This document shows positions 3,091-25,996 of a stretch of DNA of 64,000 nucleotides, in pieces. The notes below the pieces were generated by a model. The model worked only from the letters and a program-made list of their open reading frames with translations, had not been told where the DNA came from and searched no databases. Position numbers and translations under genes: made by a program. Source of the stretch: a virus; the IMG/VR virus record IMGVR_UViG_3300047160_005727, positions 32,001 to 96,000 of that record. One strand, written 5' to 3'. The first letter of the stretch is position 1, and each line of letters starts with the position of its first letter.

Positions 3091-3138
3091 ATGGGGGGAT
3101 GGGACGGCCTGCGGGCTGCCCTCCCCCATCCTTTTTTT
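3091..3138 (+). terminator. intrinsic terminator
   Basis: ATGGGGG...CCCCCAT stem with an inner CGGCC/GGCTG stem, followed by T7. Confidence 0.75.
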
Positions 3139-3156
3139 AACTATCAGGCGGCAGGG

Positions 3157-5133
3157 ATGCTCAAGACGACCCTCGGTCAGATGATGCTGAACGATCAGCT
3201 CCCCGAGGACATGCGGGACTACACCCGCACCCTGGATAAGAAGGGTATCCAGAAGCTGTTCCAGGAAGTTGCCGAGCGGTATCCCGACAGATACCGAGAA
3301 GTGGCCAAGCGGCTCTCCGACATGGGCCGTGATGTTGCCTACTCTACCGGCGGCTTCTCTCCTAGCCTGGAAGACATGCGGCCCAGCAAAGCGGCTGAGC
3401 GCATCAAGGAACAGATCCGCCGGCACGTTCAGCTGATCCAGGCTGACAACCGGATGGATGACGAGCGCAAGTCACAGGCGATCGTTGCTGCCGTGGAAGA
3501 GCGGCAGAAGGAGATGGAGGATGCCGTCTTCGAGGAAGCCAAGGCATCTGGCAACCCCTATGCGCACCAGGTGGTTTCCGGTGCGCGGGGCAGCAAGCTC
3601 AACCTGAAGTCATTGCTGGGCTCGGACATGCTCTACGTCGATCACCACGATCGGCCGATCCCGGTGCCAGTGCTTAACGCATATCCGCGTGGGCTCTCGC
3701 CAGTCGAGTACTGGGCCGGTGCCTTCGGGGCTCGCAAGGGCGTCGCGGCCACCAAGTTCGCCACTCGAGATGCCGGCTCGCTGGCCAAGCAGCTCAACCA
3801 GGTTGCTCACCGGCTGATCATCACGGGCCATGACGACCCGAACGAAGACACATCCACGATCCGCGGGCTGCCGACGGCGACTGATGATCCCGACAATGAG
3901 GGGGCCTTGCTGGCTCATCCGGCCGGGCCGTATGGCCGGAACACGATCTTGACTCCCAAGATCCTCAAGGACCTCCAGACCAAAGGGCATGGCAAGATCC
4001 TGGTTCGATCACCCCTGGTAGGCGGACCGGCTCACGGTGGGGTTTTCGCCCGCGATGTCGGTGTCCGGGAGCGGGGCGGTCTGGCGCCCATGGGTGACTA
4101 TGTCGGTCTGGCTGCTGCGCAAGCTCTCTCCGAGAAGCTATCCCAGGGGCAGCTGTCAGCCAAGCATACCGGCGGTGTCGCCGGTGCCGACAAAGCTGTC
4201 TCCGGCTTTGCTCTTATCAACCAATTGATCCAGGTACCGAAAACTTTTACGGGCGGCGCTACCCATGCCCAGCTCGACGGCAAGATCACGTCGATCGAAG
4301 ATGCCCCCCAGGGTGGCAAGTATGTCAACGTCGGCAGCGAGCAGCACTACATACCGCACGGGCTCGACCCGACCGTCAAGATCGGTGACTCGGTCGAGGC
4401 CGGCGATACCATTTCAGGGGGCCTGCCCAACCCCGCAGAGATGGTCAAGCACAAGGGCATCGGCGAGGGTCGCCGCCATTTTGTCAAGGCGTTCGGGGAT
4501 GCCTACCGGGGCTCGGACATGGGTGCACACCGGCGAAACATCGAGCTTCTGGCCAGGGGCTTGATCGATCATGTTCGGGTAACGGACGAGTTTGGTGATC
4601 ATGTAGAGGACGACATCGTGCCGTACTCGACCATCGAGAAGAGCTGGAACCCGCGCGCGGGTTCCAAAGTGGTCGGACTGTCGTCGGCTGTGGGTAAGTA
4701 CCTCGAACGTCCTGTCCTGCATCACAGCATTGGCACCAGGGTCAAGCCCGGGATGCTTCCCGAACTCAAAGAGTTCGGGGTCAATAACCTGGAGGTTCAT
4801 GATGAACCTCCGCCGTTTGAGCCGACGATGATCCGGGGCCAGTACAACCTCCAGCACGACCCCGACTGGATGACCCGGCATATCGGTTCCGGACTGGAGA
4901 AAGCCACCCTCCAGGCAGCTCACCGGGGCTCCAGTAGCGATATCGCTGGTACGAGCTATGTCCCTGCACTGGCAGAACGTACGCACTTCGGCAGGCAGGG
5001 TCCGACCCAGGGTTGGCACCCGGAGGCGCAGCATTGGGACGACGATGACGATAATATAGGCCACGACGATACGCCAAAAGTGCGGCCCCATACGCCAGCC
5101 GGCGCCAGGACCGCTACCTGGCGGTCTGACTGA
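3157..5133 (+). CDS. rpoC: phage multisubunit RNA polymerase beta'-like subunit, C-terminal half (split subunit)
   Basis: SGARGS motif; GLSPVEYW..GARKG..T..AG.L (bridge helix); VRSPL; GDYVGLAAAQ.LSE..SQ....KHTGG (trigger loop); SBHM-like VKIGDSVEAGD; RRNIELLARGL. No NADFDGD motif. Start placed at the ATG after the terminator. Confidence 0.9.
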   Translation: MLKTTLGQMMLNDQLPEDMRDYTRTLDKKGIQKLFQEVAERYPDRYREVAKRLSDMGRDVAYSTGGFSPSLEDMRPSKAAERIKEQIRRHVQLIQADNRMDDERKSQAIVAAVEERQKEMEDAVFEEAKASGNPYAHQVVSGARGSKLNLKSLLGSDMLYVDHHDRPIPVPVLNAYPRGLSPVEYWAGAFGARKGVAATKFATRDAGSLAKQLNQVAHRLIITGHDDPNEDTSTIRGLPTATDDPDNEGALLAHPAGPYGRNTILTPKILKDLQTKGHGKILVRSPLVGGPAHGGVFARDVGVRERGGLAPMGDYVGLAAAQALSEKLSQGQLSAKHTGGVAGADKAVSGFALINQLIQVPKTFTGGATHAQLDGKITSIEDAPQGGKYVNVGSEQHYIPHGLDPTVKIGDSVEAGDTISGGLPNPAEMVKHKGIGEGRRHFVKAFGDAYRGSDMGAHRRNIELLARGLIDHVRVTDEFGDHVEDDIVPYSTIEKSWNPRAGSKVVGLSSAVGKYLERPVLHHSIGTRVKPGMLPELKEFGVNNLEVHDEPPPFEPTMIRGQYNLQHDPDWMTRHIGSGLEKATLQAAHRGSSSDIAGTSYVPALAERTHFGRQGPTQGWHPEAQHWDDDDDNIGHDDTPKVRPHTPAGARTATWRSD

Positions 5134-5804: not shown

Positions 5805-6356
5805 GTGACCCCGCGAGAGCTAGGACGGCAAGCCGCTCTCTTGCACCTGAAAATGGCCGCAGCCTCGGCGACAACATCATCATCGAGCAGCAGTCCCAGT
5901 CTCAGCACCTCCGGTACTGGAACTCCGACTAGCACTGGAGGTGCAGCTTCGGCAACGACGCTCGGCGCCAAGCCGGGGAACATTGCTCCGGCACCGGCGG
6001 TCCCAAATGTCACGCCGCAGCCTGGCGCAGCGCCGGGTGGCAGTGTGACCCAACCATCGCTCGCAACAACACGACCTGCGCCACCGGCTCCAGCCCCGGC
6101 AGCCCCGGCCGGCGGACTCGGCGCCGGAGCCGGCGCCAGCGCTGGAGGCGGACTCGGCGGTATGCTTGGCGGACTGATGAACCCACAGATGCTCGGACAG
6201 CTGATGGCAGGCCCGCTCAAGGGGCCTGCTGAACAGTTTCTGGGAATGGGTGGCTTTCCGCTTCTGGCTGGTGGAAGCAATGCGCTGCTTCGCGGAGGTC
6301 AAGATATCGGTAATATCATGAAGGGGTCGATCGGTAACGTGAAAGCCGGAGCGTAG
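5805..6356 (+). CDS. Ala/Gly/Pro-rich putative internal head protein
   Basis: AAGGAG SD. N-terminal LKMAA motif, S/T/P linker and Gly-rich hydrophobic C-terminus. Confidence 0.7.
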   Translation: MTPRELGRQAALLHLKMAAASATTSSSSSSPSLSTSGTGTPTSTGGAASATTLGAKPGNIAPAPAVPNVTPQPGAAPGGSVTQPSLATTRPAPPAPAPAAPAGGLGAGAGASAGGGLGGMLGGLMNPQMLGQLMAGPLKGPAEQFLGMGGFPLLAGGSNALLRGGQDIGNIMKGSIGNVKAGA

Positions 6357-6427
6357 ATGGAGTAGGCCCAGCGAACGCGGGGGCGAACGCTGGGCCCTGA
6401 CGACAACCTGTGCAAGAGGTCATCGTC

Positions 6428-7180
6428 ATGCCTGAGTCTATTGCGAGTGTGAGACGGCGTCGACAAAAGCGGTTGCTGGCTGGACTGTGCGTACGTTGCG
6501 GCGATCGGCCGCCAATACTAGGGATGACCAAGTGTGATAAGTGTCGGGAGAGTAGTCTGGCATGCTATGCAAGGCAAGTCGCTCGGGGTAAATGTACGGG
6601 GTGTGGCGGTAAGACTTCCGGGCGGGTCCATTGCGAAGACTGTAGACGCAGAGAACGGGATAAAGAAATACAACGGATCAAAGCCGGACTCTGTGCTGAC
6701 TGTCGGAACCACCATGATGGAAAGACAAGACGATGTGAAACTTGTCGCACTAGAAAGCGAGTCGCTGATCAACAGCAACGCGATAGGGTCTTCGCGGCTT
6801 ATGGCGGCTATCACTGCAACTGCCCTGGTTGCAACGAGACTGAGCCGGTCTTTCTCGAGATCGATCATATCGAAGGTGGTGGCAACAAGCACCGTAGAGC
6901 GGTCGGGCGAAGCAACCTTTATCGGTGGCTCTGCAAGAACAAATTTCCTCCCGGTTTTCAAGTCCTATGTGCTAACTGCAACCGTGGCAAATACCGCCTC
7001 GGAGTCTGCCCTCATCAGCTGAGCAAGGAGGCTCGTCCATGCCTGCCGCAACCATCAGTCGCAGCCGCTCCGAGATCGTCCAGCGGCGCGAGCTACTCGT
7101 CAAGGTCGCTGACGGGGCCGGGGACGGCCAAGACCAGGCGTTCGAGCAGGCATTCGCCAACTTGGCTCACGCCTACCTGA
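6428..7180 (+). CDS. HNH homing endonuclease with N-terminal Cys zinc-finger repeats
   Basis: Repeated G.C..CG...C..C units, then C.CPGC..LEIDHIEGGG..HR...LCANCN. Lower GC than neighbours. 3' end overlaps the next gene. Confidence 0.85.
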   Translation: MPESIASVRRRRQKRLLAGLCVRCGDRPPILGMTKCDKCRESSLACYARQVARGKCTGCGGKTSGRVHCEDCRRRERDKEIQRIKAGLCADCRNHHDGKTRRCETCRTRKRVADQQQRDRVFAAYGGYHCNCPGCNETEPVFLEIDHIEGGGNKHRRAVGRSNLYRWLCKNKFPPGFQVLCANCNRGKYRLGVCPHQLSKEARPCLPQPSVAAAPRSSSGASYSSRSLTGPGTAKTRRSSRHSPTWLTPT

Positions 7181-9633
7181 AAGACCGGGCTCCCGGTCTG
7201 CTCGACTACGAGGTCGGGTTCCAGCTCCTCGATCGCAACGAGGACAACTCGAAGGCCATTGGCGTTCGAGGCTTCAAGGTCGGCTCCCAGATCCTGTTCG
7301 CCCCGGTATTCTTCATCGATGGCGACCTGAAGGGTCATGAGCTGCTGTACATCAAGAACGATGATCAATTCGTGCCGCTGAAAGAGAACTGGATCAACTA
7401 TCTCCTCCAGAAGAAGCCCATGACTTTGGGCGACGGGATACACAGAGACACTCGCCGAGTCGGCGTACGACGGCCTACTCTGGGCCGGCTGGTGCACTCG
7501 CCCAGCAAGTACGCTTCTACCATGCCGGGCTGGCTCCAGGATGGCCTGCCCGGACTGGCTTACGCGGCAACGACCAACCCGTTTACTGATCTCCGCTACA
7601 AGGGCATGCGCGAGGTACCCGATCTGCTCAAGGAAGGCGGGATCAAGACCGTGCGAGCCCTGCTGAAGTATGCCCAGGCGTACCCGGCGATCGCACGTGG
7701 CCTCGATGAGTTCTACGATATGAAGGTGATCGGTGGCTTGCTGGCCGATCTCAAGCGCGAGAAGGCCGCAGCGGCGATCACCAGTGTCCTGTCCGGACTG
7801 GATGTAGCTCCGCGTCGCGCGCTGCCAGGCTGGGCACGCGGTCCGTCAGTGCTGGGTGACCTTGAGCCGTACAACCCGATCAAGACCGGGGCACTCCAGG
7901 TCTACAACTATGACCGTGCCGGTGGCAGCAAGGCACGGGCTACCGAGGGCCTGGACGAGATCGACAGCGAGAAGCTGCTCCGAGATGCGATCCTGATCAA
8001 GGACGAGCGGAAGCAGGACGAAGGGATCTCGGTCCCGTACAAGGTTCTGACCAAGCGGAACCTGGTCAACCCCGACCAGACCGGGCTCTACGACGTCATG
8101 GTCAAGCCGGACGTCTTCGAGAAGATGCTGGTGGTCATTGGCCCGTATGGTGCCGACGGCCGCAAGGGTTTCTGCACGGTCGCCCGCGTCGAAGGCGATC
8201 CCAAGGGCTGGATCAACATCCACCCGTCCTATGTCGTGGTCTCGAAGCAGTACTCCGATGATGACTGGAAGAAGTGGACTGACGGTCTGCCCGATGCCGA
8301 CAGTCTGACCGAGGATAGCGATGGCCAATACATGGTCATCGGAGCCGACAAGGCCGATGCTACCCTGCCGTTCATCGTCCAGGGCACCATCGGCGATCCC
8401 GAGGGCTACAAGCTCTTCAACGTCCGCTTCGATATGTTCTCGGGGCGGCCTCGCCCGTCAGCCATGCGCGGCATGACACTATGGGGCTACTACGAGAGCC
8501 GGATCACGGACAACTCGGAAGTCTACGATCGCTGGGCCGACGGCGAGCGGTTGCACGTTGGCCCCCGGCTGGGTGCCGAGATGCGGAGCCGGCGCGGCGA
8601 CGTGTTCGTGCCCCAGGGCTCCAAGCTGTTCAAGGTCGAGATGGCCGACTACGACGACGATCAGTGGGATCCGCCAGAAGAGAACCTGATGAAGCCCATC
8701 AGGCCGATCAAGAGCCTTACCGGCGGCAAGGGCGAGAGCAAGACGCCGCCGATCGCGCCCTCCCACTTCATCGACATCGAGATGGGCATGTGGCACGAGA
8801 AGGTGGGTGAAGAGGTCCGGGTGCGGACCGATCGGCTGGGTATGACTATCCCGCATGACCGGCTCGTGATCCGGTTCGACGGCAGCAGTGCCAACATCGA
8901 CGGCGGTGGCTACCTGACCGAGAAGCAGGCGATCGTGCATCTGGTGCGTGACAAGGGGTTCACCGAGAAGGTTGCCCGTGCCTTGCTTGCCGAGGCTCAG
9001 GGCAACTTCGCCAAGAAGACTGGCCCGATGGCCGAGTTCCGCGTCGAGTATGCTCCCTGGGTCAAGTGGGCCATGAACAAGCGGGCTGCCAACCCCTATC
9101 TGCTGGACGACAGTCCGATCGCACCGGCCATTCCGGATCCCCGGTATGACCAGGACTCGTACATGGGCTCGTACGTGCCGTCGCAGAAGCCGCAGGAAGA
9201 CTTCCTGCCGGTTGACGGCATGCGCGCTGACCCGGCCAACCGCGAGCTGTACCGTCCCACCGTCGAGCCCGACCCCTATGCAGCTCACGCCGCGACGGAA
9301 GCCGCCGCCAAGGGGCAGCGGGAGATCTTCGACACATCGATCCTGGGTGGGCTGCTGAAGACCACTCGAGACGATCAGCTCACCGATCGCTACCTGGGCG
9401 ATCTGATGAAGGGCATGGACCGCATCGGCCGGATCCTGTTTCAGCTTTACTGGCACCGTGACTCGTTCGAGGAGCGGTACGGCAAGCAGCACGTTCCCGA
9501 GCTGGAAGACATGCTCCGGAACTCGTTCGAGGATATCGGCGATCTGGTGCTCGATCTGAAGCAGAAGACGATCGAGCCCGATCCTGAGTCGGCCGGCCAG
9601 CGGATCGACTTCAAGAGCGACACGAACGACTAG
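7039..9633 (+). CDS. large putative virion head protein, function unknown
   Basis: AAGGAGG SD, 864 aa, several K-x-A motifs, located in the head cluster. Confidence 0.7.
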   Translation: MPAATISRSRSEIVQRRELLVKVADGAGDGQDQAFEQAFANLAHAYLKDRAPGLLDYEVGFQLLDRNEDNSKAIGVRGFKVGSQILFAPVFFIDGDLKGHELLYIKNDDQFVPLKENWINYLLQKKPMTLGDGIHRDTRRVGVRRPTLGRLVHSPSKYASTMPGWLQDGLPGLAYAATTNPFTDLRYKGMREVPDLLKEGGIKTVRALLKYAQAYPAIARGLDEFYDMKVIGGLLADLKREKAAAAITSVLSGLDVAPRRALPGWARGPSVLGDLEPYNPIKTGALQVYNYDRAGGSKARATEGLDEIDSEKLLRDAILIKDERKQDEGISVPYKVLTKRNLVNPDQTGLYDVMVKPDVFEKMLVVIGPYGADGRKGFCTVARVEGDPKGWINIHPSYVVVSKQYSDDDWKKWTDGLPDADSLTEDSDGQYMVIGADKADATLPFIVQGTIGDPEGYKLFNVRFDMFSGRPRPSAMRGMTLWGYYESRITDNSEVYDRWADGERLHVGPRLGAEMRSRRGDVFVPQGSKLFKVEMADYDDDQWDPPEENLMKPIRPIKSLTGGKGESKTPPIAPSHFIDIEMGMWHEKVGEEVRVRTDRLGMTIPHDRLVIRFDGSSANIDGGGYLTEKQAIVHLVRDKGFTEKVARALLAEAQGNFAKKTGPMAEFRVEYAPWVKWAMNKRAANPYLLDDSPIAPAIPDPRYDQDSYMGSYVPSQKPQEDFLPVDGMRADPANRELYRPTVEPDPYAAHAATEAAAKGQREIFDTSILGGLLKTTRDDQLTDRYLGDLMKGMDRIGRILFQLYWHRDSFEERYGKQHVPELEDMLRNSFEDIGDLVLDLKQKTIEPDPESAGQRIDFKSDTND

Positions 9634-9644
9634 GAGCTGCACCG

Positions 9645-10142
9645 ATGGCCGATACCAGTTCGCAAGGGACTAACCAGTTTCCTGTCGCCGTTACCGGCGG
9701 CCAGATCGTCCGTCTTGCGCTTGGTGCACCGGCGATGGGCTTGATCATGAAGGCCACGATCGTGCAGCTCAACGCAGATGGGAGCGCGATCGCTGATGGC
9801 AACGCCGCGCTGGGTGGCTTCTCATATACGTTCTTTGATGCGGGTATTGCCTGTCCTCCTGGGGTAACGAACATATCCGATGAGGCCACTACGCCTCTCG
9901 TTACCGCCGCCGCAGAGGCCCAACACCAGATCTCACCAACCAAGACAGTACCGTCTGGTAAAAGCCGCTTTCTACTTGCAGACGGTACCGACGGGACTTT
10001 CTCACAGATCGGCATTCCCTACATCAACCGGGATGGCAGCTTATCGAGTGCTCAGCCCGTGATCTACCTGAAGCTGGTAGCACCGGGCAGCGGACCCAAG
10101 ACCTTCGGTGTTTTCATGGGGATCCAGCACTACCGCGGCTGA
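9645..10142 (+). CDS. hypothetical protein, possibly structural (beta-rich)
   Basis: AGGAG SD, 165 aa. Confidence 0.7.
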   Translation: MADTSSQGTNQFPVAVTGGQIVRLALGAPAMGLIMKATIVQLNADGSAIADGNAALGGFSYTFFDAGIACPPGVTNISDEATTPLVTAAAEAQHQISPTKTVPSGKSRFLLADGTDGTFSQIGIPYINRDGSLSSAQPVIYLKLVAPGSGPKTFGVFMGIQHYRG

Positions 10143-10161
10143 TACGCGGCGTAACAAAGTC

Positions 10162-11124
10162 ATGATCCACAACTACTCAGCACGAAACCCTCGCAGACCA
10201 GTCGACTGGAGATGGAAGCGCGCCGGACTGGCCGCTGGTGGCGGGTATCCGCTGTCGCGACGGCGGGACAATGACGCGTGGATCGCCCGCGCGGCACGGT
10301 TCATCAAGGAACATGAAGAATGCAAGACTGAGCAGGATCTTGCCGTGCTGGAGGATAAGTACCCGGTCCTCTATTGGGCTTATGATATCTGGTTTACCCA
10401 GAACGAGGGCGGCAACCCGGTCAAGAGCGAGGTCGAGGCCAGGTTGCTGGCTGATGACGACCCGCACAACATCGCCCGTCGCGTGCGGACTGAAGTCGAT
10501 GTTATTGATGCTTACGAGCACATTTTTTTCAACGTCAGCGAAAGTTTGGGCAACCGCGGCTATCTCATGCATTGCGTCCTCGGGCCGGCGGTTCATCTGG
10601 GTTTCCAGACCAGCGAATACGATATGATCTGGAAGCTGTTCGCACTTCTGGGTGGACCACTGGCTGTTGACCTTATGGTCGATCAGTCGGTAGGTCATGC
10701 CCGGCCCGACCGTGCCAGCGATCTGAAGTACTTCGTCGCCGACGTCGCCCAGAACGATCTGCGCCGCGTGGCGATGCTCGCTTTGAAGACCTTGCGCATT
10801 AACAACTTCAACGCCGTCGAGATCATTGACCGGTTCTTGAAGCTAGTCGAGCTGGAACGGACTGGCGGCGGTGCCGGCGGTGGTGCCAACGAGGCATTCA
10901 AGCAGAATGTTCATACCATGCTTGTCGGGCTGCCGTTCACGGTCGGCCGGCGGCTGGGGCGTGTGGACGTGACTCCGATCGGCCGTTACGATGATCTGGC
11001 GGCCGAACTTCGCTACGAAGAGGTTATGGCGATCGCGGCCGGCCAGATCATCCCCGCACAAAGTATGCTGGAGATGCTGGCATTTCCATCGGCTAATGGG
11101 TCCATCACGGAGGCTACGGACTAA
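10162..11124 (+). CDS. hypothetical protein
   Basis: Long helical ORF coupled to the next gene (TAATG). Start uncertain. Confidence 0.7.
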   Translation: MIHNYSARNPRRPVDWRWKRAGLAAGGGYPLSRRRDNDAWIARAARFIKEHEECKTEQDLAVLEDKYPVLYWAYDIWFTQNEGGNPVKSEVEARLLADDDPHNIARRVRTEVDVIDAYEHIFFNVSESLGNRGYLMHCVLGPAVHLGFQTSEYDMIWKLFALLGGPLAVDLMVDQSVGHARPDRASDLKYFVADVAQNDLRRVAMLALKTLRINNFNAVEIIDRFLKLVELERTGGGAGGGANEAFKQNVHTMLVGLPFTVGRRLGRVDVTPIGRYDDLAAELRYEEVMAIAAGQIIPAQSMLEMLAFPSANGSITEATD

Positions 11125-12497
11125 TGCCAAGGACTATGCCCCGAATGACCAAAGAGGGCGAGGCGCGACTGCGAGCTGCCCTCGACGCCGTTGTTGACAT
11201 GGTCAACAGCGGCGAAGCCCCTGACGATGCCATCGTCAAGGTGGCGTCCGAACAGGCGATCCAACCTGGCCACGTCGGTCTGATGGTGCACGCCTACAAT
11301 ACTGGTCGCACCACCAGGCATCGCGAGTCACACTCTTCACTGCTCGACAAGGCAGCCGACTTTCCCATCGCTGATGCACCAGCGATCCTTGAACGGCTGT
11401 ATCCGTCCAGGGTCAAGTCAGCTGCTGCGATCGAGCGCGAGTCCGGAGTGCACATCGACTACACCATGTCGCCGGCCTGGTACACCCGTGCCTCCCATGC
11501 CACCGGAATGGAGAAGGCAGCCGAGGCGGTTGACTGGAAGATGTCTGACCGGCAGGTTACGGCCTATCCGACTGTCCGTGATCTGGAGGCCGGCGATCGG
11601 ATCAAGGTCGCCCGGCAGAAGGCTGCCAGGGCCGAGGAGGAGGACAGGCTGCAAGCCTCGCGCATCCAGAACGACATCATGGCCGGCTTCGCCAAGCTGG
11701 CCGAGTACTTCGCCGGCTACACCAACCTGACGCTGCACGACGTCCGCGACAACGTCGAGACCCTGTACGGCAACGAGGGTATGGCGGTCCTGCGGCAGCT
11801 GGACCGCACCCGGCCCAACCTGGTGAAGCGGGCCTCGACCGGTAGGTTCCATTCGGCGGCGGCCGAGCCCTACCAGACCATCGGTCATCTGGTCAAGCTG
11901 GCCGGCCAGCTCCGGCAGATGATCGCCTGCAACGAGAAGCGTGCCGCCGAGCGTGCCGCAGCACTGGAGGAACTTGAGCGCCCTTTCGTACCCGCCCCTC
12001 GCCAGTCACTTCTCGATCCGCTGTCCTTACCTATGACTAAGCGGGCCATCGGCGAGGGGCTTCTTGGTGGTATCAATGACATAGTCGGCAGCGAGTTCAT
12101 CCAGCCGACGATCGAGCAGTTGCGTCCGACCGACAAGGACAAGCTCGTCCAGAAGAAGCTCGAACAGATCGCTACCCCGCAGCACGAGCAACAGCTTCGA
12201 GACATCAGGACACGGGCGATGCTCGAAGACATGCTGTCCAATGATCCGGTCATTCAGGGACATGATCGCGACGACGTACTCAGTGCCTTCAATGAAGTCA
12301 GTCAGCTGGCTCCGCGGGCTAGCCAGCAGCCTCTGTTGATGAACGCCATGTTGCGGACGCGGCTCCAGCAAGGTAGCCTCGATCCGTTCCAGACGGGCGA
12401 ACTGGTCAAGACCGAGCAAGGGTTGAAAAACATCGGTAGCGTTCCCGCACCACCAGGAGCCAAGAGTGGACCGCCATCAGCCAGCGTTCTGGCTTAG
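11124..12497 (+). CDS. putative head/core protein rich in K-x-A motifs
   Basis: 457 aa. Contains VKVAS, DKAAD, VKSAA, EKAAE, VKRAS, VKLAG, EKRAA and TKRAI. Confidence 0.75.
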   Translation: MPRTMPRMTKEGEARLRAALDAVVDMVNSGEAPDDAIVKVASEQAIQPGHVGLMVHAYNTGRTTRHRESHSSLLDKAADFPIADAPAILERLYPSRVKSAAAIERESGVHIDYTMSPAWYTRASHATGMEKAAEAVDWKMSDRQVTAYPTVRDLEAGDRIKVARQKAARAEEEDRLQASRIQNDIMAGFAKLAEYFAGYTNLTLHDVRDNVETLYGNEGMAVLRQLDRTRPNLVKRASTGRFHSAAAEPYQTIGHLVKLAGQLRQMIACNEKRAAERAAALEELERPFVPAPRQSLLDPLSLPMTKRAIGEGLLGGINDIVGSEFIQPTIEQLRPTDKDKLVQKKLEQIATPQHEQQLRDIRTRAMLEDMLSNDPVIQGHDRDDVLSAFNEVSQLAPRASQQPLLMNAMLRTRLQQGSLDPFQTGELVKTEQGLKNIGSVPAPPGAKSGPPSASVLA

Positions 12498-13671
12498 TCA
12501 GGATCCGGCAGGCGCTGCCGACTTCCTGGCACGCACGGCTGTGGCCAGCCGTGTCGTGGGTGGGTTCGTCAAGACAGCGCAGGGGCCGGCGCCACCGCCA
12601 CCACCGGCAGCAGGCGGATCATCTCCTTGGACGAACGCGCTGACCAACGCTGCCATCGGTGCCGGCGTCGGTGGACTGGGCGGGCTCGGGATGGGCCTGT
12701 TCTCGAAGCGTCGGAAGAACCCGATGACATCGGCACTTACTGGGGCTCTTCTGGGTGGTACTCTTGGCGCTGCTGTTCCTGCGGCGTATGAAGGGCTCAA
12801 GGGTCTGAGCGCGCCGGCCTACAACAGCGGTAATGCAGCCCTGGATGCCCGGCGAGCTGCGGCCTTCGATGCGGCACCAGGCTACATGAAGGCTATCTAC
12901 AAGATCACTGGTGGTGCCCCGGAGATCGACTCCGGAGCGCCACTTCCAGAGCAGCAAACGCAGCTTCAGCGGACTCAGGCTAACACTGGCTGGAGCGATA
13001 TTGCGAAGCAAACTGCCAAAGAAACCCTCGGCGGGGCAACCGGTGCTGCCAAGGGTTATGCTGCGGACAACCCGGCCACGGCCGCGTATCATGGTGCCGT
13101 CGGGACGGCCCAGGGCTTGTATGCTGCCAGGACGGCTGCGGCAAAGAGGTGGCAGCAGGTGCAAGCTGGTGTTCAGGGTACCAAGATCGATATGGGCACA
13201 CCTCCTGGTCCGAGAGGGAGTAAAGGCGCGGGCGGAAAAGCGCCGGCTGATCCGGGGCTTGCACGGCTCAAAGCGTACGTGGATACAGCCTCGCCTGATG
13301 TTGGTCGCGTACCTGGGACTAACCTGCGCATGTCAGGATGGAACCCATTCCGCAGATGGAACGAAGCCAACCTCGGCCGTGAACTGGGAAGAGTTCAGGC
13401 TGGTGCCACCATGACAGGCCCACGTTTCGGACCTATTGCCGGTAACGCCGCCACAGGCCAGGTCAAACTTCCTGGAATGGGAGCGTCAGCCGTCAACGCG
13501 ATGCAGCAGGCCGGCAGGGACGCGATAGCTGCGAGGGCTGGAAAGGGAATGATCGGTAAGGGTATGCGTGGCGGTGGCAAGGTGATAGGTACGACACTAA
13601 TGTATGCTGCACCACATGCCCTGCCTTGGGCGTACAACACGGTAAAAGACTGGTGGAACGGGGCCCAGTAA
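12466..13671 (+). CDS. Gly/Ala-rich putative internal (ejected) protein with glycine-zipper helices
   Basis: VKTAQ near the N-terminus, then AAIGAGVGGLGGLGMG and ALTGALLGGTLGAA helices. Confidence 0.65.
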   Translation: MDRHQPAFWLSQDPAGAADFLARTAVASRVVGGFVKTAQGPAPPPPPAAGGSSPWTNALTNAAIGAGVGGLGGLGMGLFSKRRKNPMTSALTGALLGGTLGAAVPAAYEGLKGLSAPAYNSGNAALDARRAAAFDAAPGYMKAIYKITGGAPEIDSGAPLPEQQTQLQRTQANTGWSDIAKQTAKETLGGATGAAKGYAADNPATAAYHGAVGTAQGLYAARTAAAKRWQQVQAGVQGTKIDMGTPPGPRGSKGAGGKAPADPGLARLKAYVDTASPDVGRVPGTNLRMSGWNPFRRWNEANLGRELGRVQAGATMTGPRFGPIAGNAATGQVKLPGMGASAVNAMQQAGRDAIAARAGKGMIGKGMRGGGKVIGTTLMYAAPHALPWAYNTVKDWWNGAQ

Positions 13672-13672
13672 C

Positions 13673-15172
13673 ATGATGCTCAAGTGCTCCGGCATCAATG
13701 CCTACAACTTCGGTGAGCCGACCATGACCCTGGTCAGGCTGCGCCGCGACGGACGGCTGGGGCCAAATGATCGTTCAGTGCTCGTGAAGCGTGCCGGTGT
13801 TGAGTTCGTCGATCGGCTGCGGCATATCAAGCTAGCCGAGGATGAAGTGCCGGTGCACATCATCGGTCTGGGTGCCACCGAGGACTACGGTCCGAACCGC
13901 AACGGCGACGGCTTTGATCGCGATGAGTGCCGCAAGCATCACGGGACGTTCCAGAAGTTCGGTCGGTTTTACCGCAACCACATCAACAAAGATCCCGACA
14001 AGAGCTACGGCCGTTTTCTGGACACGGCTTTTAACGAGCCCATGAAGCGGATCGAGCTGCTGGCCGGTCTGAATGGCAGCGAGAAAGCTGCCAAGGCCAA
14101 CGGCGGTCTGGTGGCCGACAAGGAGATGGAGCTGTTGGAAGCCGGTAAAGATATCCCGACTTCCATGGCCTGCAAGGTAGCTCACGACATTTGCTCGGGC
14201 TGCGGCAACAAGGCCCGCACCCGCCAGGAATACTGCGACGGCGCTCTGTGCAAGTACGGCGGGCTCAAGGACAACATCGGTCGGACGTTCGATGACGGTC
14301 ATGTGCTTCATGCCAGGAACCCGAACCCGGTTTGGTTCGACGACTCACACGTCCACAAACCGGCTGACCGGATCGCCTGGAGCCTGGGTCGCCTGGAGAA
14401 GTCCGCTTCGACAGGTGGCCGGGTTATCGGCTTGGGCGGCGCTGCCCTCGCCGATGAGATCGGTCTGACGATGCCCCTCGAACTGATGGTCGACCCGTTC
14501 ATGCCGAGCTGGGTCGCGCAGCACGTCAAGACAGCCCAGCTGCTGGCTGATGCCGAGAAGCGGGTTGAAGGCGAAGGCCCGACCAATAGCGATCGTGCCT
14601 TCGACTATGAAGTGCAGGGGCCGGTCCGGGACTTTCCGGATGACCTGCATACCAGGAACCGGCTCGAACACATGCTTGGTGCCCTGGCAAACGAGAAAGT
14701 TGCATTGCCGCTGCGAGACTTTCTGGTATTAGTAGCTGGTGATGAGAAGCAGGCCAGTGATGCTTACGCAGATGTTGCCGCACAACTGCCGGGCATCTAT
14801 GGTAGACTAACCCGGAGCCCGACCCTGGATACCCAGGTGCGGGACAGCATCTATGTTTTCAACGGCCATGCGGCCCATCCGCCGCTGGCCATGCAGACCT
14901 GGGCGTCCAAGCTAGCCATGACCCACGGGCTACAACAGAAGCATGTTCAGGACCGTGTGCACACGCACGCGATCCGCAGTTTGCCCGTTCCGCGGCATCG
15001 CGGCCAGGGCGAGGAAATGCTCAAGCAGGCGTCCGATATGGGCGGTGCTGAGCGGCTTGCGAGGCAGTATGCTCTCTACAAACTTGCACTGGCGTCGGCG
15101 CTCCGGGCGACCGACGAACGTACTTTCCCCTTGACATCCACTTTACTGGTGCGCCAGAACTACGTAAGCTGA
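13673..15172 (+). CDS. putative prohead maturation protease (HK97/assemblin-like fold) with a Cys zinc-finger insert
   Basis: Candidate catalytic His (FYRNH) and Ser (TSMAC), DS.V.KPA motif, CSGCGN..C insert. Canonical position upstream of scaffold and capsid genes. Confidence 0.7.
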   Translation: MMLKCSGINAYNFGEPTMTLVRLRRDGRLGPNDRSVLVKRAGVEFVDRLRHIKLAEDEVPVHIIGLGATEDYGPNRNGDGFDRDECRKHHGTFQKFGRFYRNHINKDPDKSYGRFLDTAFNEPMKRIELLAGLNGSEKAAKANGGLVADKEMELLEAGKDIPTSMACKVAHDICSGCGNKARTRQEYCDGALCKYGGLKDNIGRTFDDGHVLHARNPNPVWFDDSHVHKPADRIAWSLGRLEKSASTGGRVIGLGGAALADEIGLTMPLELMVDPFMPSWVAQHVKTAQLLADAEKRVEGEGPTNSDRAFDYEVQGPVRDFPDDLHTRNRLEHMLGALANEKVALPLRDFLVLVAGDEKQASDAYADVAAQLPGIYGRLTRSPTLDTQVRDSIYVFNGHAAHPPLAMQTWASKLAMTHGLQQKHVQDRVHTHAIRSLPVPRHRGQGEEMLKQASDMGGAERLARQYALYKLALASALRATDERTFPLTSTLLVRQNYVS

Positions 15173-15224
15173 GTCTTTGCACTCGGGCACGGCTGCTGCA
15201 TCGGTCAAAGGAGTGACCCCACTC

Positions 15225-16520
15225 ATGTCAACTCTGAAAACTTCGCGAAACGCGGTCTTCTCCAGCCTTCGCTCGTTCTTCGACGAGATCGATGGCGAGA
15301 AACAGGCTGCTGAGAAGCAGGGTGCCCCACTGAGCGAGCCAGGCTCGCGTGGCGGCGAAACGACCCATCCGTCCAAGAACGTCGACGACGGGCTCATCCC
15401 TCTTCAAGAGGGCGCCCGGTTCAAGGAGAACACGTCGGACGTCAAGGAAGAGATCGGCGCGGCGTCGGTCGAGAACGCCAAGGACCCCGGCGGTCAGATG
15501 CAACACGAGTTGCAAGTCGGCGTCCGGCACGCTCCGACCGGCGAAGACCCATCCGTTGAGGATGACTTCAAGGGGAACAAGGAAGATCCCGGCACGTCGT
15601 CGGTCATGAAAGCCGATGACGGCGAGAAGTATGGTGAGTGGGACTTCAAGAAACTTGCCGCCGCGATCGGCAACCTCGGCAACGAGATCATGGCCGACCT
15701 GGGGCACGGCAAGCTCGTCGAGAAGCAGGCGACCCCGGCTGGCAATGGCACGGTTCACAGCCGTGGTCAGACGTTCAAGGTCAACAACCCGCCGCCGGCT
15801 CAACCCACTGAGCCGCCCGCCGAGGTTGACGAAGAGACCAAGCAGGCCGCTGCCGCCGGCTACAAGCTGGCTGCCGCGATGGGACTGGACGGCGACGGCG
15901 CTGACGCCCAGGTCTCCCTGATGGTCGAGACCATCATCAAGGAAGCCCAGGCTCAGGCAGACGGGCTGGCGCAGTTCATCGACGCCTATGCGCGTACCGT
16001 CAAGCAGGCTGCCGATCCAGCAGCTACCGAAGCCGAAGATCACATGGCACCGGGCGGACCTCCTCCACCCGGTGCCGACCCGTCCGCTGGCGGCGATGGC
16101 GCTGGCGGTCCGCCGCCTGATGGCGGCGGCCAGGATCCGATGGAGATCCTGTCGCAACTGCCGCCGGAAGTGCTCCAGCAGCTCGTTGCTGCCGTTCAGC
16201 AAGGTGGGCTTGTTCCGGGTGGTGGCGGCGGTCCAGGCGGCCCTCCGGGCGGTCCTGGAGGCGGTCCGCCCGATACAGGCGGTGATCCAACCGAGAACCT
16301 GAGCGGTGCCATGCACGAGATGGGCGTCTCGCCCGACGAGCTGGCAGCAGCCGCTCCCAAGGTTGCCGCCGATCAGCGTGAGACCTTGTTGAAGATCGCT
16401 AACACGGTCAAGACCAAGCGGCGTTCGGGCCAGCTGGGCTACAAGGTAGCCTCGACCCCTTACGACCAACAGGTCAGGGCTGAAATGCGGCAGTACCTCG
16501 CCGAGGTCATCGGCGCCTGA
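15225..16520 (+). CDS. putative scaffolding/core protein
   Basis: AAGGAG SD. Acidic, low-complexity GGPP linkers and about ten K-x-A motifs. Lies between protease and capsid genes. Confidence 0.65.
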   Translation: MSTLKTSRNAVFSSLRSFFDEIDGEKQAAEKQGAPLSEPGSRGGETTHPSKNVDDGLIPLQEGARFKENTSDVKEEIGAASVENAKDPGGQMQHELQVGVRHAPTGEDPSVEDDFKGNKEDPGTSSVMKADDGEKYGEWDFKKLAAAIGNLGNEIMADLGHGKLVEKQATPAGNGTVHSRGQTFKVNNPPPAQPTEPPAEVDEETKQAAAAGYKLAAAMGLDGDGADAQVSLMVETIIKEAQAQADGLAQFIDAYARTVKQAADPAATEAEDHMAPGGPPPPGADPSAGGDGAGGPPPDGGGQDPMEILSQLPPEVLQQLVAAVQQGGLVPGGGGGPGGPPGGPGGGPPDTGGDPTENLSGAMHEMGVSPDELAAAAPKVAADQRETLLKIANTVKTKRRSGQLGYKVASTPYDQQVRAEMRQYLAEVIGA

Positions 16521-16536
16521 TCACGGAGGAGAATTT

Positions 16537-16962
16537 ATGGCTGCGGCCCGTACCCGACCCAGGACTGTTCCCGAGAAGGTTCTCGAGTTCGTCGACATGT
16601 CCGCCGCAATGGCGGAGAAGGCGGCCGGGGTTCTCTCGAAGCAGGAACAAATGGAAAAGCAGGCTGCCGATCTGATCCCCACGGCCGTCGACGAGCTACT
16701 CAAAGCCAAGCTCATCGAGCCCGAGGAGAAGCAGGCGGCACTCGACGCACTCAAGGATCCGGTGCGAACGCTCCAGATCCTGATCAAGACCGCGCGTGCC
16801 AAGCACGACGACAACTCATTCACGCTCGGTCGACCGGACACCAACGGTCATGCCGAGAAGCGAGCCAACGCCGGGCCAGGCCCCTATGCCGGGCGTCGTT
16901 ACGGTGAGGCCGAGGAGCCCGAGAGCTTTCGCGTGTTCCGCAACAGGCTCATGGGTAACTAA
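16537..16962 (+). CDS. small helical scaffold-like head protein
   Basis: GGAGG SD. Contains EKAAG, EKQAA x2, IKTAR and EKRAN. Confidence 0.7.
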   Translation: MAAARTRPRTVPEKVLEFVDMSAAMAEKAAGVLSKQEQMEKQAADLIPTAVDELLKAKLIEPEEKQAALDALKDPVRTLQILIKTARAKHDDNSFTLGRPDTNGHAEKRANAGPGPYAGRRYGEAEEPESFRVFRNRLMGN

Positions 16963-17007
16963 GGGGACGGATACCGAAGAACCTTCAAGGAGGTAAAAGG
17001 AACTCAC

Positions 17008-17646
17008 ATGTCGACCTACACTGGCCCAACCCTGATGTTCCAGCACTGCCTTGATGAACTCAAGGGGTGGCCCGATGAGTCTGCGCTCGACTTCGACGCG
17101 TACCTGTCGACCAACGTGACAGTCGACCCGGTTTACGGCGGTAGCTGCGTCCACGTCAACCAGTCCGGTCAGTTCGAGCTAGGTGTCGGCGCTGGTCCTG
17201 GCGACATGGGGATCTTCCTGCTTCAGGGATCCCATGAGCTTGACGTGGCCAACCCTGGCGGCAACAACTGGACGCCCATCGCACCGGCCGGACCCAACGG
17301 CAACCCGATCGGCAAGATGTCAGGACTGGTCGCCACCGGCGCCTACGAGCTGGAGACGACCGAGTTCGACCCGACGACCACCATCTTCGGTGGCGCCAAT
17401 GTCCATCCCAACATCGTCCCTGGTCAGATGCTGACTGCACCGACCGAGGCCGCGATCACCACCGGCACTGACAAGAGCATGGCCGGCAAGCTCTTCGCTT
17501 TCGCCAACTGGCCGGGCGGTGCCGGAGATGCGGTGATCGCCAAGAACTATCCGGTTTGTGCAGTGTGCAGCCGGGTAACTCACTGGAACCATCACCGCGT
17601 GCCGGTCACGTCGTTCTGGCCGGTTTATCTGCCCAAGCAGTCCTGA
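17008..17646 (+). CDS. putative capsid decoration/cement protein
   Basis: Strong SD, beta/Gly-rich, immediately upstream of the capsid gene. Confidence 0.55.
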   Translation: MSTYTGPTLMFQHCLDELKGWPDESALDFDAYLSTNVTVDPVYGGSCVHVNQSGQFELGVGAGPGDMGIFLLQGSHELDVANPGGNNWTPIAPAGPNGNPIGKMSGLVATGAYELETTEFDPTTTIFGGANVHPNIVPGQMLTAPTEAAITTGTDKSMAGKLFAFANWPGGAGDAVIAKNYPVCAVCSRVTHWNHHRVPVTSFWPVYLPKQS

Positions 17647-17700
17647 GTCCATCGTTACTGTTCGCTATGGAAACCATCCCCTTCACGGAGGAGACCTAAA

Positions 17701-18645
17701 GTGGCAGCCGGCAACGCCGTCATGACCAGGTCAGAAGTGCAGCTCATGAACGAGACGCTCTTCTCGCACCTGACGAACCCCGGGATGATCAAGACCGCCA
17801 TCGACGCAGTGAACGACTTCACTCGCATAAAGATGCGTGAAGATGGGTTCGCTCGTCGTGTCATGCCCCCACTCCAGATCGCCAACGACGAGCTGGATCG
17901 CCAGGTCGACACCGACAAGCCCGTCAAGGTGGTCGACAAAGAGCCCGACAGCCCGGCCGCGATCTCGATCCCGTTCGCGACGCTGCCGACCAACGTCTAC
18001 ATCCGAGGCCCGCGTTACCGCGTTGCGTTCGACCGCATCGTGACCCCGCGGTTCACCAAGGACGTCGACGAACTCCGTACCTGGATCATGGATATCCGGC
18101 AGGTTTTGTCGGACAATGCCATCAAGGACATGCTAGCGGAGGAGGACTCTAAACTCATAGGAGCAACCAACTTAGCGTTGGTCGCCCATGACACGCCGGT
18201 GCCTTGGTCGCAGATGCCACAGTGGGTCACGATCCATGGCGGCATCACTCGTGACTCCGTCCTCGACTCGCTGAAGATCATGCCGAGCACGGACGCGAGA
18301 CTTGAAGTCGCCACGGTGTTGATCAACAACGTGACGATCAAGGAAGTCATGAAGTGGGGCCGTGACGAGATGGGCGGTGACTTCAGCCAGGACGTTCTCC
18401 GGAACGGCTGGTCGGAAACCGACTTCCTCGACAAGCGCTGGATCATCACGATCAAGCACGACTTGGTTCCAAATGACAGCATATTCATGTATGCTGATCC
18501 GAAGTTCATAGGCAAAATGTATATTCTCGAAGATACTACAATGTATATCAAGAGAGAAGCATATTTGCTTGAGTTCTTCGCCTACGAAACACTGGGCGGA
18601 ACCATCGGCCACACCGGCGGGTTGGCTCGGGCAGACTTCGCCTGA
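17701..18645 (+). CDS. major capsid protein (HK97-like fold, inferred)
   Basis: GGAGG SD, 314 aa, located after protease/scaffold/decoration genes. Helix, E-loop and spine-helix layout ending in a beta-rich C-terminus. Confidence 0.75.
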   Translation: MAAGNAVMTRSEVQLMNETLFSHLTNPGMIKTAIDAVNDFTRIKMREDGFARRVMPPLQIANDELDRQVDTDKPVKVVDKEPDSPAAISIPFATLPTNVYIRGPRYRVAFDRIVTPRFTKDVDELRTWIMDIRQVLSDNAIKDMLAEEDSKLIGATNLALVAHDTPVPWSQMPQWVTIHGGITRDSVLDSLKIMPSTDARLEVATVLINNVTIKEVMKWGRDEMGGDFSQDVLRNGWSETDFLDKRWIITIKHDLVPNDSIFMYADPKFIGKMYILEDTTMYIKREAYLLEFFAYETLGGTIGHTGGLARADFA

Positions 18646-18705
18646 GCATCTTTTGATCTGTTTACGGTTACTTCACGCGGAACTTGATCTACCAGGGAGG
18701 GCAAC

Positions 18706-19125
18706 ATGGCCGAGGGGCAGAACCAGGACCAAGCACAGGTTCCGGTGCCGAGGCCCGACGCGGCGTACGACTTCTTGTACAGCCAGATCCACGCCCCGGT
18801 ATTCTTCAACAAGCTCGCCCAGGACTACGGCATCGTTCCGCAGAACGATACCGAGGCCATTCAGCTCCTGGATATGGCCGCTGATCTGTTTGCAGCCGGC
18901 CAGCAAGAGCAGCAGAAACAGGCCAGTGCTCAGGGCACCTTCATCAACCAGGCCCACCAGAGCCTCCAGATGCTTCTGGGCAAGACGGGTGGTGCCCGAG
19001 ACGTCAATGCTCCGGCCAACGACCGTCTGGTCAAGCAAGCGGCGGCTGAGCTGACCAGGAACCCTTACGTCCGGGCCGCCGCCCTGTCGTATCAGTTGCA
19101 CCTGGCTCAACAACAGCAAGGATGA
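18706..19125 (+). CDS. small head-associated protein
   Basis: GGGAGG SD. Contains FFNKLAQ, QKQAS and VKQAA. Confidence 0.7.
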   Translation: MAEGQNQDQAQVPVPRPDAAYDFLYSQIHAPVFFNKLAQDYGIVPQNDTEAIQLLDMAADLFAAGQQEQQKQASAQGTFINQAHQSLQMLLGKTGGARDVNAPANDRLVKQAAAELTRNPYVRAAALSYQLHLAQQQQG

Positions 19126-19626: not shown

Positions 19627-20895
19627 ATGCATATCACCGTCATCACGCCCACGCACGAAGTGACCTGGTTGGGCGATGCGTGGGCGAGTCTGCGATCGCA
19701 GACCTATGATGACTGGGACTGGCTGATCCTGCCCAACGGTGGCGCCAGGGTTACCTCGGACATCAGTTCAGACCGCCGCGTTGGCGTACTGCCCGAGGAC
19801 TGGACTACGACCGGAAACGTCGGGGCCTTGAAGCGGCAGCTCTGCAACCACGCTGCCGGCCCTGTGATCGTCGAGCTGGATCATGACGACATCCTGACGC
19901 CTGACTGCCTGGCCGAGGTTGCAGCGGTCATTGGCGACCCCGAGGAGCCATCGTTCGTCTACTCGGACTTCGTCCAGTTCTGGCCTGATCACAACAGCCA
20001 TGTCTTCAGCGCTGACTGGGGCTGGGAAACCTACCCGTTCGAGTTCGGTGGTCGGAGCTACACGGCAACGCGGGCATTCGATGCAACAGCCGCCAGCCTG
20101 CGCCAGATCTATTTTGCACCCAACCATGTGCGTGCCTGGACCAAGGCGGCTTACGGGCTCGTCGGCGGCCATGACCCGGAGCTGCCTGTCTGCGACGACC
20201 ACGACCTAGTTTGCCGGCTCTATCTGGCTCAGGTGCCGTTCCATCACATTCCCAAGGTACTTTACCTGTACCGGGAGCGAGCCCACGCCGTGCCCTCGCA
20301 GAACAGCTACCGCAGCTTCCAAGGCGATGGCACACTCGAGAAGGTGCACCATCGCAACCAGAACCGGTATACCTGGCGGCTGGCTCACGAATGGTGCCGC
20401 CGGGCCGGCCTGTCGATGTACGATCTGGGCGGCCGCATCGACTGCCCCGAAGGCTACAAGTCAGTCGACCGCTTCGATGCCGATGTCTGCTGCGACGTGA
20501 CCGAGGGGTTGCCGTTCGAGGACAACTCGGTGGGCATCTTCCGGGCGGCTGACTTCCTGGAGCACATTCCCAGGGAGCACGTCATTCCGTTCATGAACGA
20601 CATGTGGCGATGCCTGGCGCCTGGTGGCTGGGTCATCAGCCGTACACCCTCTACGGGCGGCAAGGGAGCCTTCTGCGACCCGACTCACGCTTCGTTCTGG
20701 AACGATCTGTCCTTCCGTTATTACTGCGATCGTCGATACGCTGCGTATGTGCCGGAGATCAAGTGCCGCTTCCAGGCGGTGCGGGTCTGGGAGTGCTATC
20801 CTAACAACTGGCACAAGAAGCAAGAGCTGAAGTACGTGTATGCCGACTTGATGGCCTTGAAAGGTCAGCGACACCCAGGCTTGCAGCTGATCTAG
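19627..20895 (+). CDS. GT2 glycosyltransferase fused to a class I SAM methyltransferase-like domain
   Basis: N-terminal ITVITPT..SL.SQTY.DW.W, ELDHDD (DxD) and DDHDL..R. C-terminal DLGG, GLPFEDNSV, DFLEH and WRCLAPGGW. Confidence 0.9.
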   Translation: MHITVITPTHEVTWLGDAWASLRSQTYDDWDWLILPNGGARVTSDISSDRRVGVLPEDWTTTGNVGALKRQLCNHAAGPVIVELDHDDILTPDCLAEVAAVIGDPEEPSFVYSDFVQFWPDHNSHVFSADWGWETYPFEFGGRSYTATRAFDATAASLRQIYFAPNHVRAWTKAAYGLVGGHDPELPVCDDHDLVCRLYLAQVPFHHIPKVLYLYRERAHAVPSQNSYRSFQGDGTLEKVHHRNQNRYTWRLAHEWCRRAGLSMYDLGGRIDCPEGYKSVDRFDADVCCDVTEGLPFEDNSVGIFRAADFLEHIPREHVIPFMNDMWRCLAPGGWVISRTPSTGGKGAFCDPTHASFWNDLSFRYYCDRRYAAYVPEIKCRFQAVRVWECYPNNWHKKQELKYVYADLMALKGQRHPGLQLI

Positions 20896-24780: not shown

Positions 24781-24792
24781 AGGGCTCTGTCG

Positions 24793-25983: not shown

Positions 25984-25996
25984 AGCGGGGTCGCTG

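Follow-up and report, generated by a model that had tools for sequence, protein, structure and literature searches.

Head module and K-x-A enrichment

The DNA analysed here (the window) is a 64,000-nucleotide stretch, bases 32001-96000 of the 141-kb IMG/VR virus record IMGVR_UViG_3300047160_005727, from an uncultured phage. The record is estimated to be 68% complete, which would make the phage about 200 kb in size. The window has a GC content of about 0.60 and carries all of its long open reading frames (ORFs) on the + strand, among them a head module in which the ORFs, named here by their first coordinate, follow the order 11124, 12466, a putative prohead protease (13673), an Ala/Glu/Lys-rich protein (15177), 16537, 17008 and the capsid protein (17701). 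Our subject is the pattern K-x-A (Lys, any residue, Ala) in the proteins of this module. A first-pass annotation had proposed it as a protease cleavage or packaging code saturating the head proteins, and every K-x-A pentapeptide listed there is present in the ORF named for it. The features concerned are given below, with observed K-x-A counts and the counts expected when each protein was shuffled separately with its composition kept (1000 shuffles).

7039-9633, + strand: head-module protein of unrecognised fold, 864 amino acids (aa); 8 K-x-A, 4.4 expected
11124-12497, + strand: head protein of unrecognised fold, predicted multiply cleaved substrate, 457 aa; 11 K-x-A, 2.5 expected
12466-13671, + strand: Ala/Pro-rich ORF of uncertain membership, 401 aa; 2 K-x-A, 3.7 expected
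13673-15172, + strand: prohead protease as judged from its modelled fold, 499 aa, N-domain of gp21 fold at about residues 15-225; 12 K-x-A, 2.6 expected
14162-14164, + strand: codon of Ser164 in TSMAC, the proposed nucleophile, invariant in 61 homologs
14399-14407, + strand: K243-S-A245 in the interdomain linker of the protease, proposed as an autocleavage site from conservation and disorder
15177-16520, + strand: Ala/Glu/Lys-rich protein, scaffold-like by position (between the protease and capsid genes), predicted substrate, 447 aa; 10 K-x-A, 3.4 expected
16537-16962, + strand: head protein, 141 aa; 5 K-x-A with a spacing of about 13-24 aa, 1.7 expected
17701-18645, + strand: HK97-fold major capsid protein; a single K-x-A, codons 17791-17799
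18706-19125, + strand: head protein, 139 aa; 3 K-x-A, 0.7 expected

The six enriched proteins (7039, 11124, 13673, 15177, 16537 and 18706) receive no name from Pfam, PHROGs or NCBIfam, the protease matching only phrog_2774, a family of unknown function.

Across the head set (7039-19125) there are 53 K-x-A against 22.4 +/- 4.4 expected, a number reached in none of the 1000 shuffles (Poisson 4e-8), and the five densest ORFs (11124, 13673, 15177, 16537 and 18706) account for 41 against 10.9 (Poisson 3e-12). The longer form K-x-A-[AS] occurs 21 times against 4.0 expected. Non-head genes of the window carry 36 K-x-A where 48.7 are expected, and the 141-kb genome outside the head module carries 158 against 156.8. 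When every pair of residues at gaps of 0-3 is scored without prior choice, K-x-A comes out on top (z 6.4) and K-Q second (z 4.05). Because the shuffles, the pair scan and the rest-of-genome counts agree, the enrichment is real and confined to the head module. It is not uniform across the head ORFs: 5805, 6410, 9645, 10108, 12466, 17008 and the capsid protein lie at or below expectation, so that the idea of a saturated module holds for six protein families (enriched 2.1-3.2x) plus one capsid site and not for the whole head cluster. ORF 12466 has one well-placed site, FVKTAQ at residue 36, and homologs in three loci only. Outside the module, the ORF at 47063-50776 (1237 aa; 14% Ala, 4.4% Lys) contains 3 K-x-A against 7.6 expected.

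Two further ORFs with raised counts lie outside the window. At 122395-123651 of the record, on the minus strand and far from the head module, a 418-aa ORF has 12 K-x-A against 3.3 expected, including the well-scoring sites FVKSAS, YEKQAA and LQKAAR; a PHROG search gave no match for it. By its motif content it is a candidate for a further processed head protein. A 658-aa ORF upstream of the window and of the RNA polymerase genes (24530-26506; 12 against 4.9) was rejected as a substrate, its sites being low-scoring and its C-terminus a (K-P-A)n low-complexity repeat. The suggestion that the motif would predict which ORFs are packaged thus gains one more candidate outside the module; the RNA polymerase beta' piece at 3091-5133, in which K-x-A is not enriched, is not labelled by it.

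K-x-A is the core of a seven-residue motif across a phage clade

More than 760 metagenomic homologs of ORF 13673-15172 were found, most of them on contigs 170-230 kb long. For comparison we took 80 IMG/VR loci, each with 10 kb on either side; over these, protease identity spans 37-91% and GC content 0.42-0.64. The order of the head module, with the protease next to scaffold-like and capsid genes, is repeated in these 80 loci and in Salmonella phage Arash. About 70 of the 80 loci have K-x-A as their most over-represented pair; in the remainder it ranks among the top seven and is surpassed only by Gly/Pro/Thr/Gln low-complexity repeats or by another pair, for example E-K, Q-L or R-x-V. The ratio of observed to expected K-x-A is 2.45x in family 7039 (77 loci), 2.65x in 11124 (78 loci), 3.24x in 13673, 2.11x in 15177 (77 loci), 3.19x in 16537 and 3.24x in 18706, or 2.69x with the six pooled. 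The remaining families lie near or below expectation (RNA polymerase beta' 0.79, 10108 0.77, 17008 0.70, capsid 1.16, 19155 0.56, 19627 1.02).

Related patterns in the six families are close to expectation: A-x-K 0.90, K-A 1.07, K-x-x-A 1.28, K-x-x-x-A 0.96, R-x-A 0.86, K-x-S 0.94, K-x-G 0.76 and E-x-A 1.11. Because the reversed and the i+3/i+4 patterns are not raised, a composition or helix bias is disfavoured. Codons at the Lys and Ala positions match general usage in loci of GC 0.42-0.64; the ordinary codons and the wide GC span over which the motif holds place the signal at the protein level, and a DNA-level cause was rejected on these grounds. The motifs of known capsid-assembly proteases were also sought in the six families and are not enriched, with ratios of 0.96-1.10x for [LI]-x-E and 0.88-1.08x for [SAG]-x-E (K-x-A there 2.7-3.2x), and 0.89-0.92x for the herpes-type [VLI]-x-A.

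The bare tripeptide proposed earlier proves to be the core of a roughly 7-residue motif, [L/F/I]-[E/V/I/T]-K-x-A-[A/S]-[A/D/E], with flank information from -2 to +4 relative to the Lys. After subtraction of the background share of sites, position -2 holds L (22%), F (14%) and I (7%), position -1 E (33%), V (17%), I (11%) and T (11%), position +3 A (37%) and S (25%), and position +4 A (24%), D (17%) and E (10%); Q is favoured at +1. A flank-only scoring matrix, built from distant relatives with two close ones excluded, finds, at scores of 3 or more, 19 sites in the head set of the window and one in the roughly threefold larger rest of the window. The best-scoring site of the window is MEKQAAD in the protein encoded at 16537-16962.

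Conserved sites lie in linkers and near N-termini

Alignment of homologs revealed that some K-x-A sites are kept as islands within poorly conserved or disordered stretches, the protease linker included, in keeping with the expectation that motif positions would be conserved. The clearest case is the K-x-A at protease K243, which is retained in 113 of 118 homologs by one count and in 97% by another, while the flanking columns are only 15% identical; the linker site reads L-E-K-[A/S]-A-[S/A], is 97-99% conserved and lies inside the disordered segment 228-252. In family 7039, K22 and A24 are invariant in 37 sequences, within an N-terminus of low model confidence (predicted local distance difference test, pLDDT, <50), and a site near residue 681 directly precedes the disordered segment 682-699. 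Further islands are found in 11124 at residues 39, 76 and 306 (the sites at 39 and 76 kept in 98-100% of homologs), in 15177 at residues 42 (90%) and 395, in 16537 at residue 108 and in 18706 at residue 71 (95%). The protease also keeps F-V-K-R-A-G at K39 in 99% of homologs. Counting from the N-terminus, the first K-x-A is typically reached at 19-39 residues, both in the capsid protein and in most enriched families, 11124 having an earlier one.

Most sites are lineage-specific. In families 7039, 11124, 13673 and 15177, between 93 and 120 alignment columns hold a site in some sequence, at about 10-14 sites per sequence. Because the site columns turn over while the count per sequence stays, the alignments suggest selection on site number as well as on position.

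ORF 13673-15172 has the fold of T4 gp21

An AlphaFold 2 (AF2) model of the protein encoded at 13673-15172, built on 61 homologs, has a mean pLDDT of 84 and consists of a beta-rich N-domain, a disordered linker (residues 228-252, pLDDT <50) and a helical C-domain (253-499). The top three PDB matches of the model in Foldseek are the chains of T4 gp21 (5jbl), with probabilities of 0.66-0.90, and VIA-align superposes it on 5jbl_A with Z 8.2, 135 of 165 residues aligned and a root-mean-square deviation of 3.4. The next rows after 5jbl are the human cytomegalovirus (HCMV) protease, with Z 3.4-3.9. On the strength of this model, the ORF encodes a protein of the T4 gp21/herpesvirus-assemblin fold, probably a serine protease, in agreement with the first-pass annotation, which had called it a protease and had pointed to the Ser of TSMAC. 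H103 and S164 (in TSMAC) are invariant in the 61 homologs, and H210 and H213 are at least 90% conserved; we propose S164 as the nucleophile. With the N-domain as query, tblastn finds proteins of Rhodococcus phage E3 and Gordonia phage Stormageddon that are annotated as prohead or capsid maturation proteases, as well as gp19 of Bacillus phage G.

Inteins favour active-site motifs. One homolog (P0009, 863 aa) carries an intein (Pfam LAGLIDADG_3 and Hint_2) exactly between A166 and C167, splitting TSMAC after its Ala two residues past S164, at a point corresponding to window 14168-14173. Residues 167-193 (window 14171-14251) contain four invariant cysteines (C174, C177, C188 and C193) and the near-invariant C167, a stretch flanked by the putative catalytic Ser and, downstream, by the His residues. 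The four-Cys insert looks like a zinc ribbon; T4 gp21 is not known to have such an insert. In several related loci, C-x-x-C also ranks high among the enriched pairs.

Cultured relatives share the motif

The nearest cultured relatives by capsid protein, at 25-27% identity, are Salmonella phage Arash and Vibrio phages D69, D148 and D181. A tblastn search with the capsid and protease sequences returned these phages, phage G and actinophages, and no phiKZ-like phage of the Chimalliviridae type. Arash (OQ632216; gp222 with gp218-gp226; PMC10585845) and the three Vibrio phages have a homologous protease (35% identity), capsid protein (27%) and RNA polymerase beta' piece in the same order as the window. 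Unlike the phage studied here, they have been cultured, on Enterobacteria and Vibrio, and their proteins are annotated only as 'structural' or 'hypothetical'.

In Arash and D69, too, no residue pair of the head module outranks K-x-A (z 4.7 and 5.1, respectively). Scored with a matrix from the uncultured clade, gp220, gp223 and gp225 of Arash and 0268, 0271 and 0273 of D69 are full of sites (for example ELVKEAS and LEKAAAV), Arash gp220 being weakly homologous to the 11124 protein. The protease homologs of both phages have one N-terminal and one mid-protein site each, and both capsid proteins have G-L-x-K-E-A-G at residue 27. Candidate cleavage sites in Arash are K27-E-A29 of gp226, K30-Q-A32 and K218-V-A220 of gp222, and K32-V-A34 of gp220. 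The tail proteins of Arash, about 3,800 residues in all, contain no high-scoring site. Neither a protease nor cleavage is mentioned for Arash (PMC10585845).

In Bacillus phage G, a weaker K-x-A excess is seen in gp19, the protease homolog (13704-14606; 8 against 2.5), and in gp21 (15132-16592; 7 against 2.8). Its capsid protein has no K-x-A and has E-T-E-E at the aligned position. These counts indicate that the rule may be partly shared, or shifted, in the phage G lineage. Rhodococcus phage E3, which has a homologous protease domain, has no K-x-A excess, and the rule is therefore not general to all homologs of the protease.

The capsid protein and ORF 7039-9633

ORF 17701-18645 matches PHROG 2522 and the NCBIfam model capsid_Caudo_2. 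It is listed from a GTG at 17701; relatives start at a Met equivalent to the ATG at 17722. From this comparison the start is probably ATG 17722, making the protein 7 residues shorter and placing its K-x-A at residue 24. The pattern G-[ML]-x-K-x-A (G-M-I-K-T-A in the window) is aligned and conserved as far as Arash and D69, at identities down to 29%. From this site, a cut about 26 aa from the ATG start is possible, and is put no higher because the site scores 0.9 in the window and the N-terminus is conserved throughout.

The AF2 model of ORF 7039-9633 has a pLDDT of 66. Its identification as a portal protein was not upheld, as the model has neither a portal nor another PDB match and the ESM Atlas returned no match. 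The protein is weakly similar to Arash gp218, and no resemblance was found to the phage G portal or to that of E3. No match to gp204, which is annotated as the Arash portal, occurs in the 141-kb record, and no portal gene was recognised in the window.

Discussion

Prohead proteases recognise short motifs that are repeated across their substrates. Those of T4, phiKZ and 201phi2-1 cut after Glu in a P3-x-P1 motif (PMC5694885), and the site of SPN3US gp245 is A-x-E at P3-P2-P1, cut after the Glu, where P4 is preferably Val and P1' Ser (PMC10052503). We consider it likely that K-x-A is the core recognition site of the phage's own head-maturation protease, encoded at 13673-15172, and that this enzyme cuts after the Ala; here we infer cleavage, bond and enzyme from motif statistics, the fold model and analogy to the known systems. 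The cut is placed after Ala because the P3-x-P1 register, applied to K-x-A, sets E/V/I at P4 and A/S at P1'. Since the T4 and phiKZ motifs ending in Glu show no enrichment, a different specificity is the natural reading. The protease would act inside the prohead, reading [L/F/I] at P5, [E/V/I/T] at P4, K at P3, any residue at P2 and A at P1, with [A/S] at P1' and [A/D/E] at P2'. Cutting would remove N-terminal propeptides of about 20-40 residues, and the scaffold-like and core proteins 11124, 15177, 16537 and 18706, with parts of 7039, would be chopped into small peptides. The protease itself would separate at the linker site K243-x-A245 and then be destroyed by its own activity, and the capsid protein would possibly be trimmed by about 26 residues. 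Nothing supports a separate packaging code, which had been offered as an alternative to cleavage.

Several observations weigh against this proposal. The capsid site is atypical in the window, with Ile at +3 and the low score given above, and lies in an N-terminus conserved over its whole length, which makes its cleavage uncertain. Some conserved K-x-A sites lie inside predicted helices or in the protease core (residues 95, 137 and 154) and are possibly structural. The link of the protease to T4 gp21 is through fold alone, as a search of its profile against PDB sequences and an hhalign comparison with the T4 gp21 sequence gave nothing useful. Clade-wide K-x-A counts are not phylogenetically independent, unlike the single-window shuffles. 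Finally, the Arash proteome, reported as coverage and a feature table with no peptide lists, has many head proteins at 100% coverage (PMC10585845).

One competing explanation is that Ala/Lys/Glu-rich helical or coiled-coil composition, or common descent of the proteins, produces the excess as a by-product with no sequence-specific function. The carriers are indeed Ala-rich and largely helical, and related loci are not independent samples. However, the shuffles hold the composition of each protein constant, the helix-periodic or reversed patterns K-x-x-A, K-x-x-x-A, A-x-K and E-x-A stay flat, and the Ala-rich ORF 47063-50776 has fewer than half the sites expected of it. The motif also holds at about 27% capsid identity (Arash, D69) and over the full GC range of the loci, and we regard a by-product as very improbable. 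A function other than proteolysis is unlikely in our view, but has more to recommend it: K-x-A might dock proteins to the capsid interior or scaffold, or expose the lysine to crosslinking or modification. Its strict need for Lys fits epsilon-amino chemistry, the motif is limited to proteins that assemble inside the head, and cleavage is itself a prediction. Against this stand the number of copies (at least 10 per protein) with their fast positional turnover, and the location of sites in disordered linkers and about 20-40 residues from N-termini. The protease is itself the densest carrier, and the flanks parallel a measured protease logo (PMC10052503).

It could also be that K-x-A is a protease site read in another way, with the bond directly after Lys in a trypsin-like manner, leaving Ala at P2', or with a host enzyme or a second phage protease doing the cutting. 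HK97-type capsid proteases cut after Lys, and in the motif Lys is strictly required, with Arg no substitute; the scissile bond, moreover, is assigned from the register of the motif. A cut after Lys would nevertheless put the information mainly at +1 to +4, on the prime side, which is unusual, and the P3-x-P1 register, P4 Val and P1' Ser match SPN3US gp245 (PMC10052503). Another enzyme would have to act although a gp21-fold protein is encoded in the module and carries the best-conserved sites itself. We judge a different bond or enzyme to be quite unlikely, and return to cleavage after the Ala of K-x-A by the protease of the module.

Comparison with T4 gp21 (PDB 5jbl; MEROPS S77) places this proposal within a known type of mechanism. 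The two enzymes share their fold and the place of their gene, which in each head module directly precedes those for scaffold-like and capsid proteins; in both systems scaffold or core proteins, like the protease, contain many copies of a short P3-x-P1 motif, and N-terminal propeptides are predicted here. They differ in that T4 gp21 reads Leu/Ile at P3 and Glu at P1 (in gp23, gp22, gp24, the internal proteins and itself), in place of the Lys and putative P1 Ala of the window. In addition, the 499-aa window protease has a 250-residue helical C-domain and a 4-Cys insert, and sequence similarity to gp21 is undetectable. Herpesvirus assemblin (MEROPS S21) cuts between Ala and Ser in (V/L/I)-x-Ala-Ser, at its maturation and release sites. 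Its fold class is shared (HCMV protease, PDB 1nkk), at a much weaker level than for gp21, and it resembles the present proposal in having Ala at P1, Ser/Ala at P1' and self-release from a C-terminal scaffold-like domain. In the window motif P3 is Lys where assemblin has an aliphatic residue, and a protein set contains dozens of sites, against two for assemblin.

The window phage resembles the phages of phiKZ gp175, 201phi2-1 and SPN3US gp245 in its jumbo type, in a multisubunit RNA polymerase associated with the virion and, by prediction, in the processing of many head proteins. Both phiKZ gp175 and SPN3US gp245 auto-cleave C-terminal to the catalytic domain at their own motif, as proposed for the linker site of the window protease (PMC5694885). 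The proteases of this group cut after Glu, in (S/A/G)-x-Glu or A-x-Glu (PMC5694885, PMC10052503), and [SAG]-x-E is not enriched here. The window clade also belongs to a different capsid and RNA polymerase lineage, as kin of Arash and Vibrio D69.

On balance, we lean towards a switch in the specificity of a gp21-fold protease, from (hydrophobic or small)-x-Glu to Lys-x-Ala followed by Ser/Ala, in a large and widespread clade of phages of about 170-230 kb that comprises hundreds of uncultured genomes together with Arash and Vibrio D69, D148 and D181. A literature search found no K-x-A, KxA or Lys-X-Ala rule for prohead cleavage, subscription journals being largely outside its reach. The proposed mechanism is of a known type, a gp21-fold protease with a multiplied P3-x-P1 motif; its code, with P3 Lys, P1 Ala and P1' Ser/Ala, has no counterpart among the phage codes reported in the literature searched. 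Every characterised protease of the T4 type (T4, phiKZ, 201phi2-1, SPN3US) cuts after Glu. If true, a Lys-x-Ala rule would mean that gp21-fold specificity is evolvable and, in one phage lineage, closer to the Ala-Ser cleavage of assemblin, which would bear on the shared ancestry of the two enzyme families. It would also allow propeptide boundaries, the set of processed head proteins, and the scaffold and core proteins that are degraded to be read from sequence across the clade. From sequence alone, the motif would help to annotate head genes that are otherwise anonymous in large uncultured phages, which number in the hundreds. It further yields a defined peptide substrate for biochemistry, and the two groups of cultured relatives make the prediction testable.

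Neighbouring genes

Two further genes lie to either side of the head module. ORF 3091-5133 matches Pfam RNA_pol_Rpb1_5, which identifies it as a piece of a split RNA polymerase beta' and not as a terminase. ORF 19627-20895, directly after the head module, is no tail sheath; it has a PHROG match to the methyltransferase family phrog_6636 over residues 243-336.

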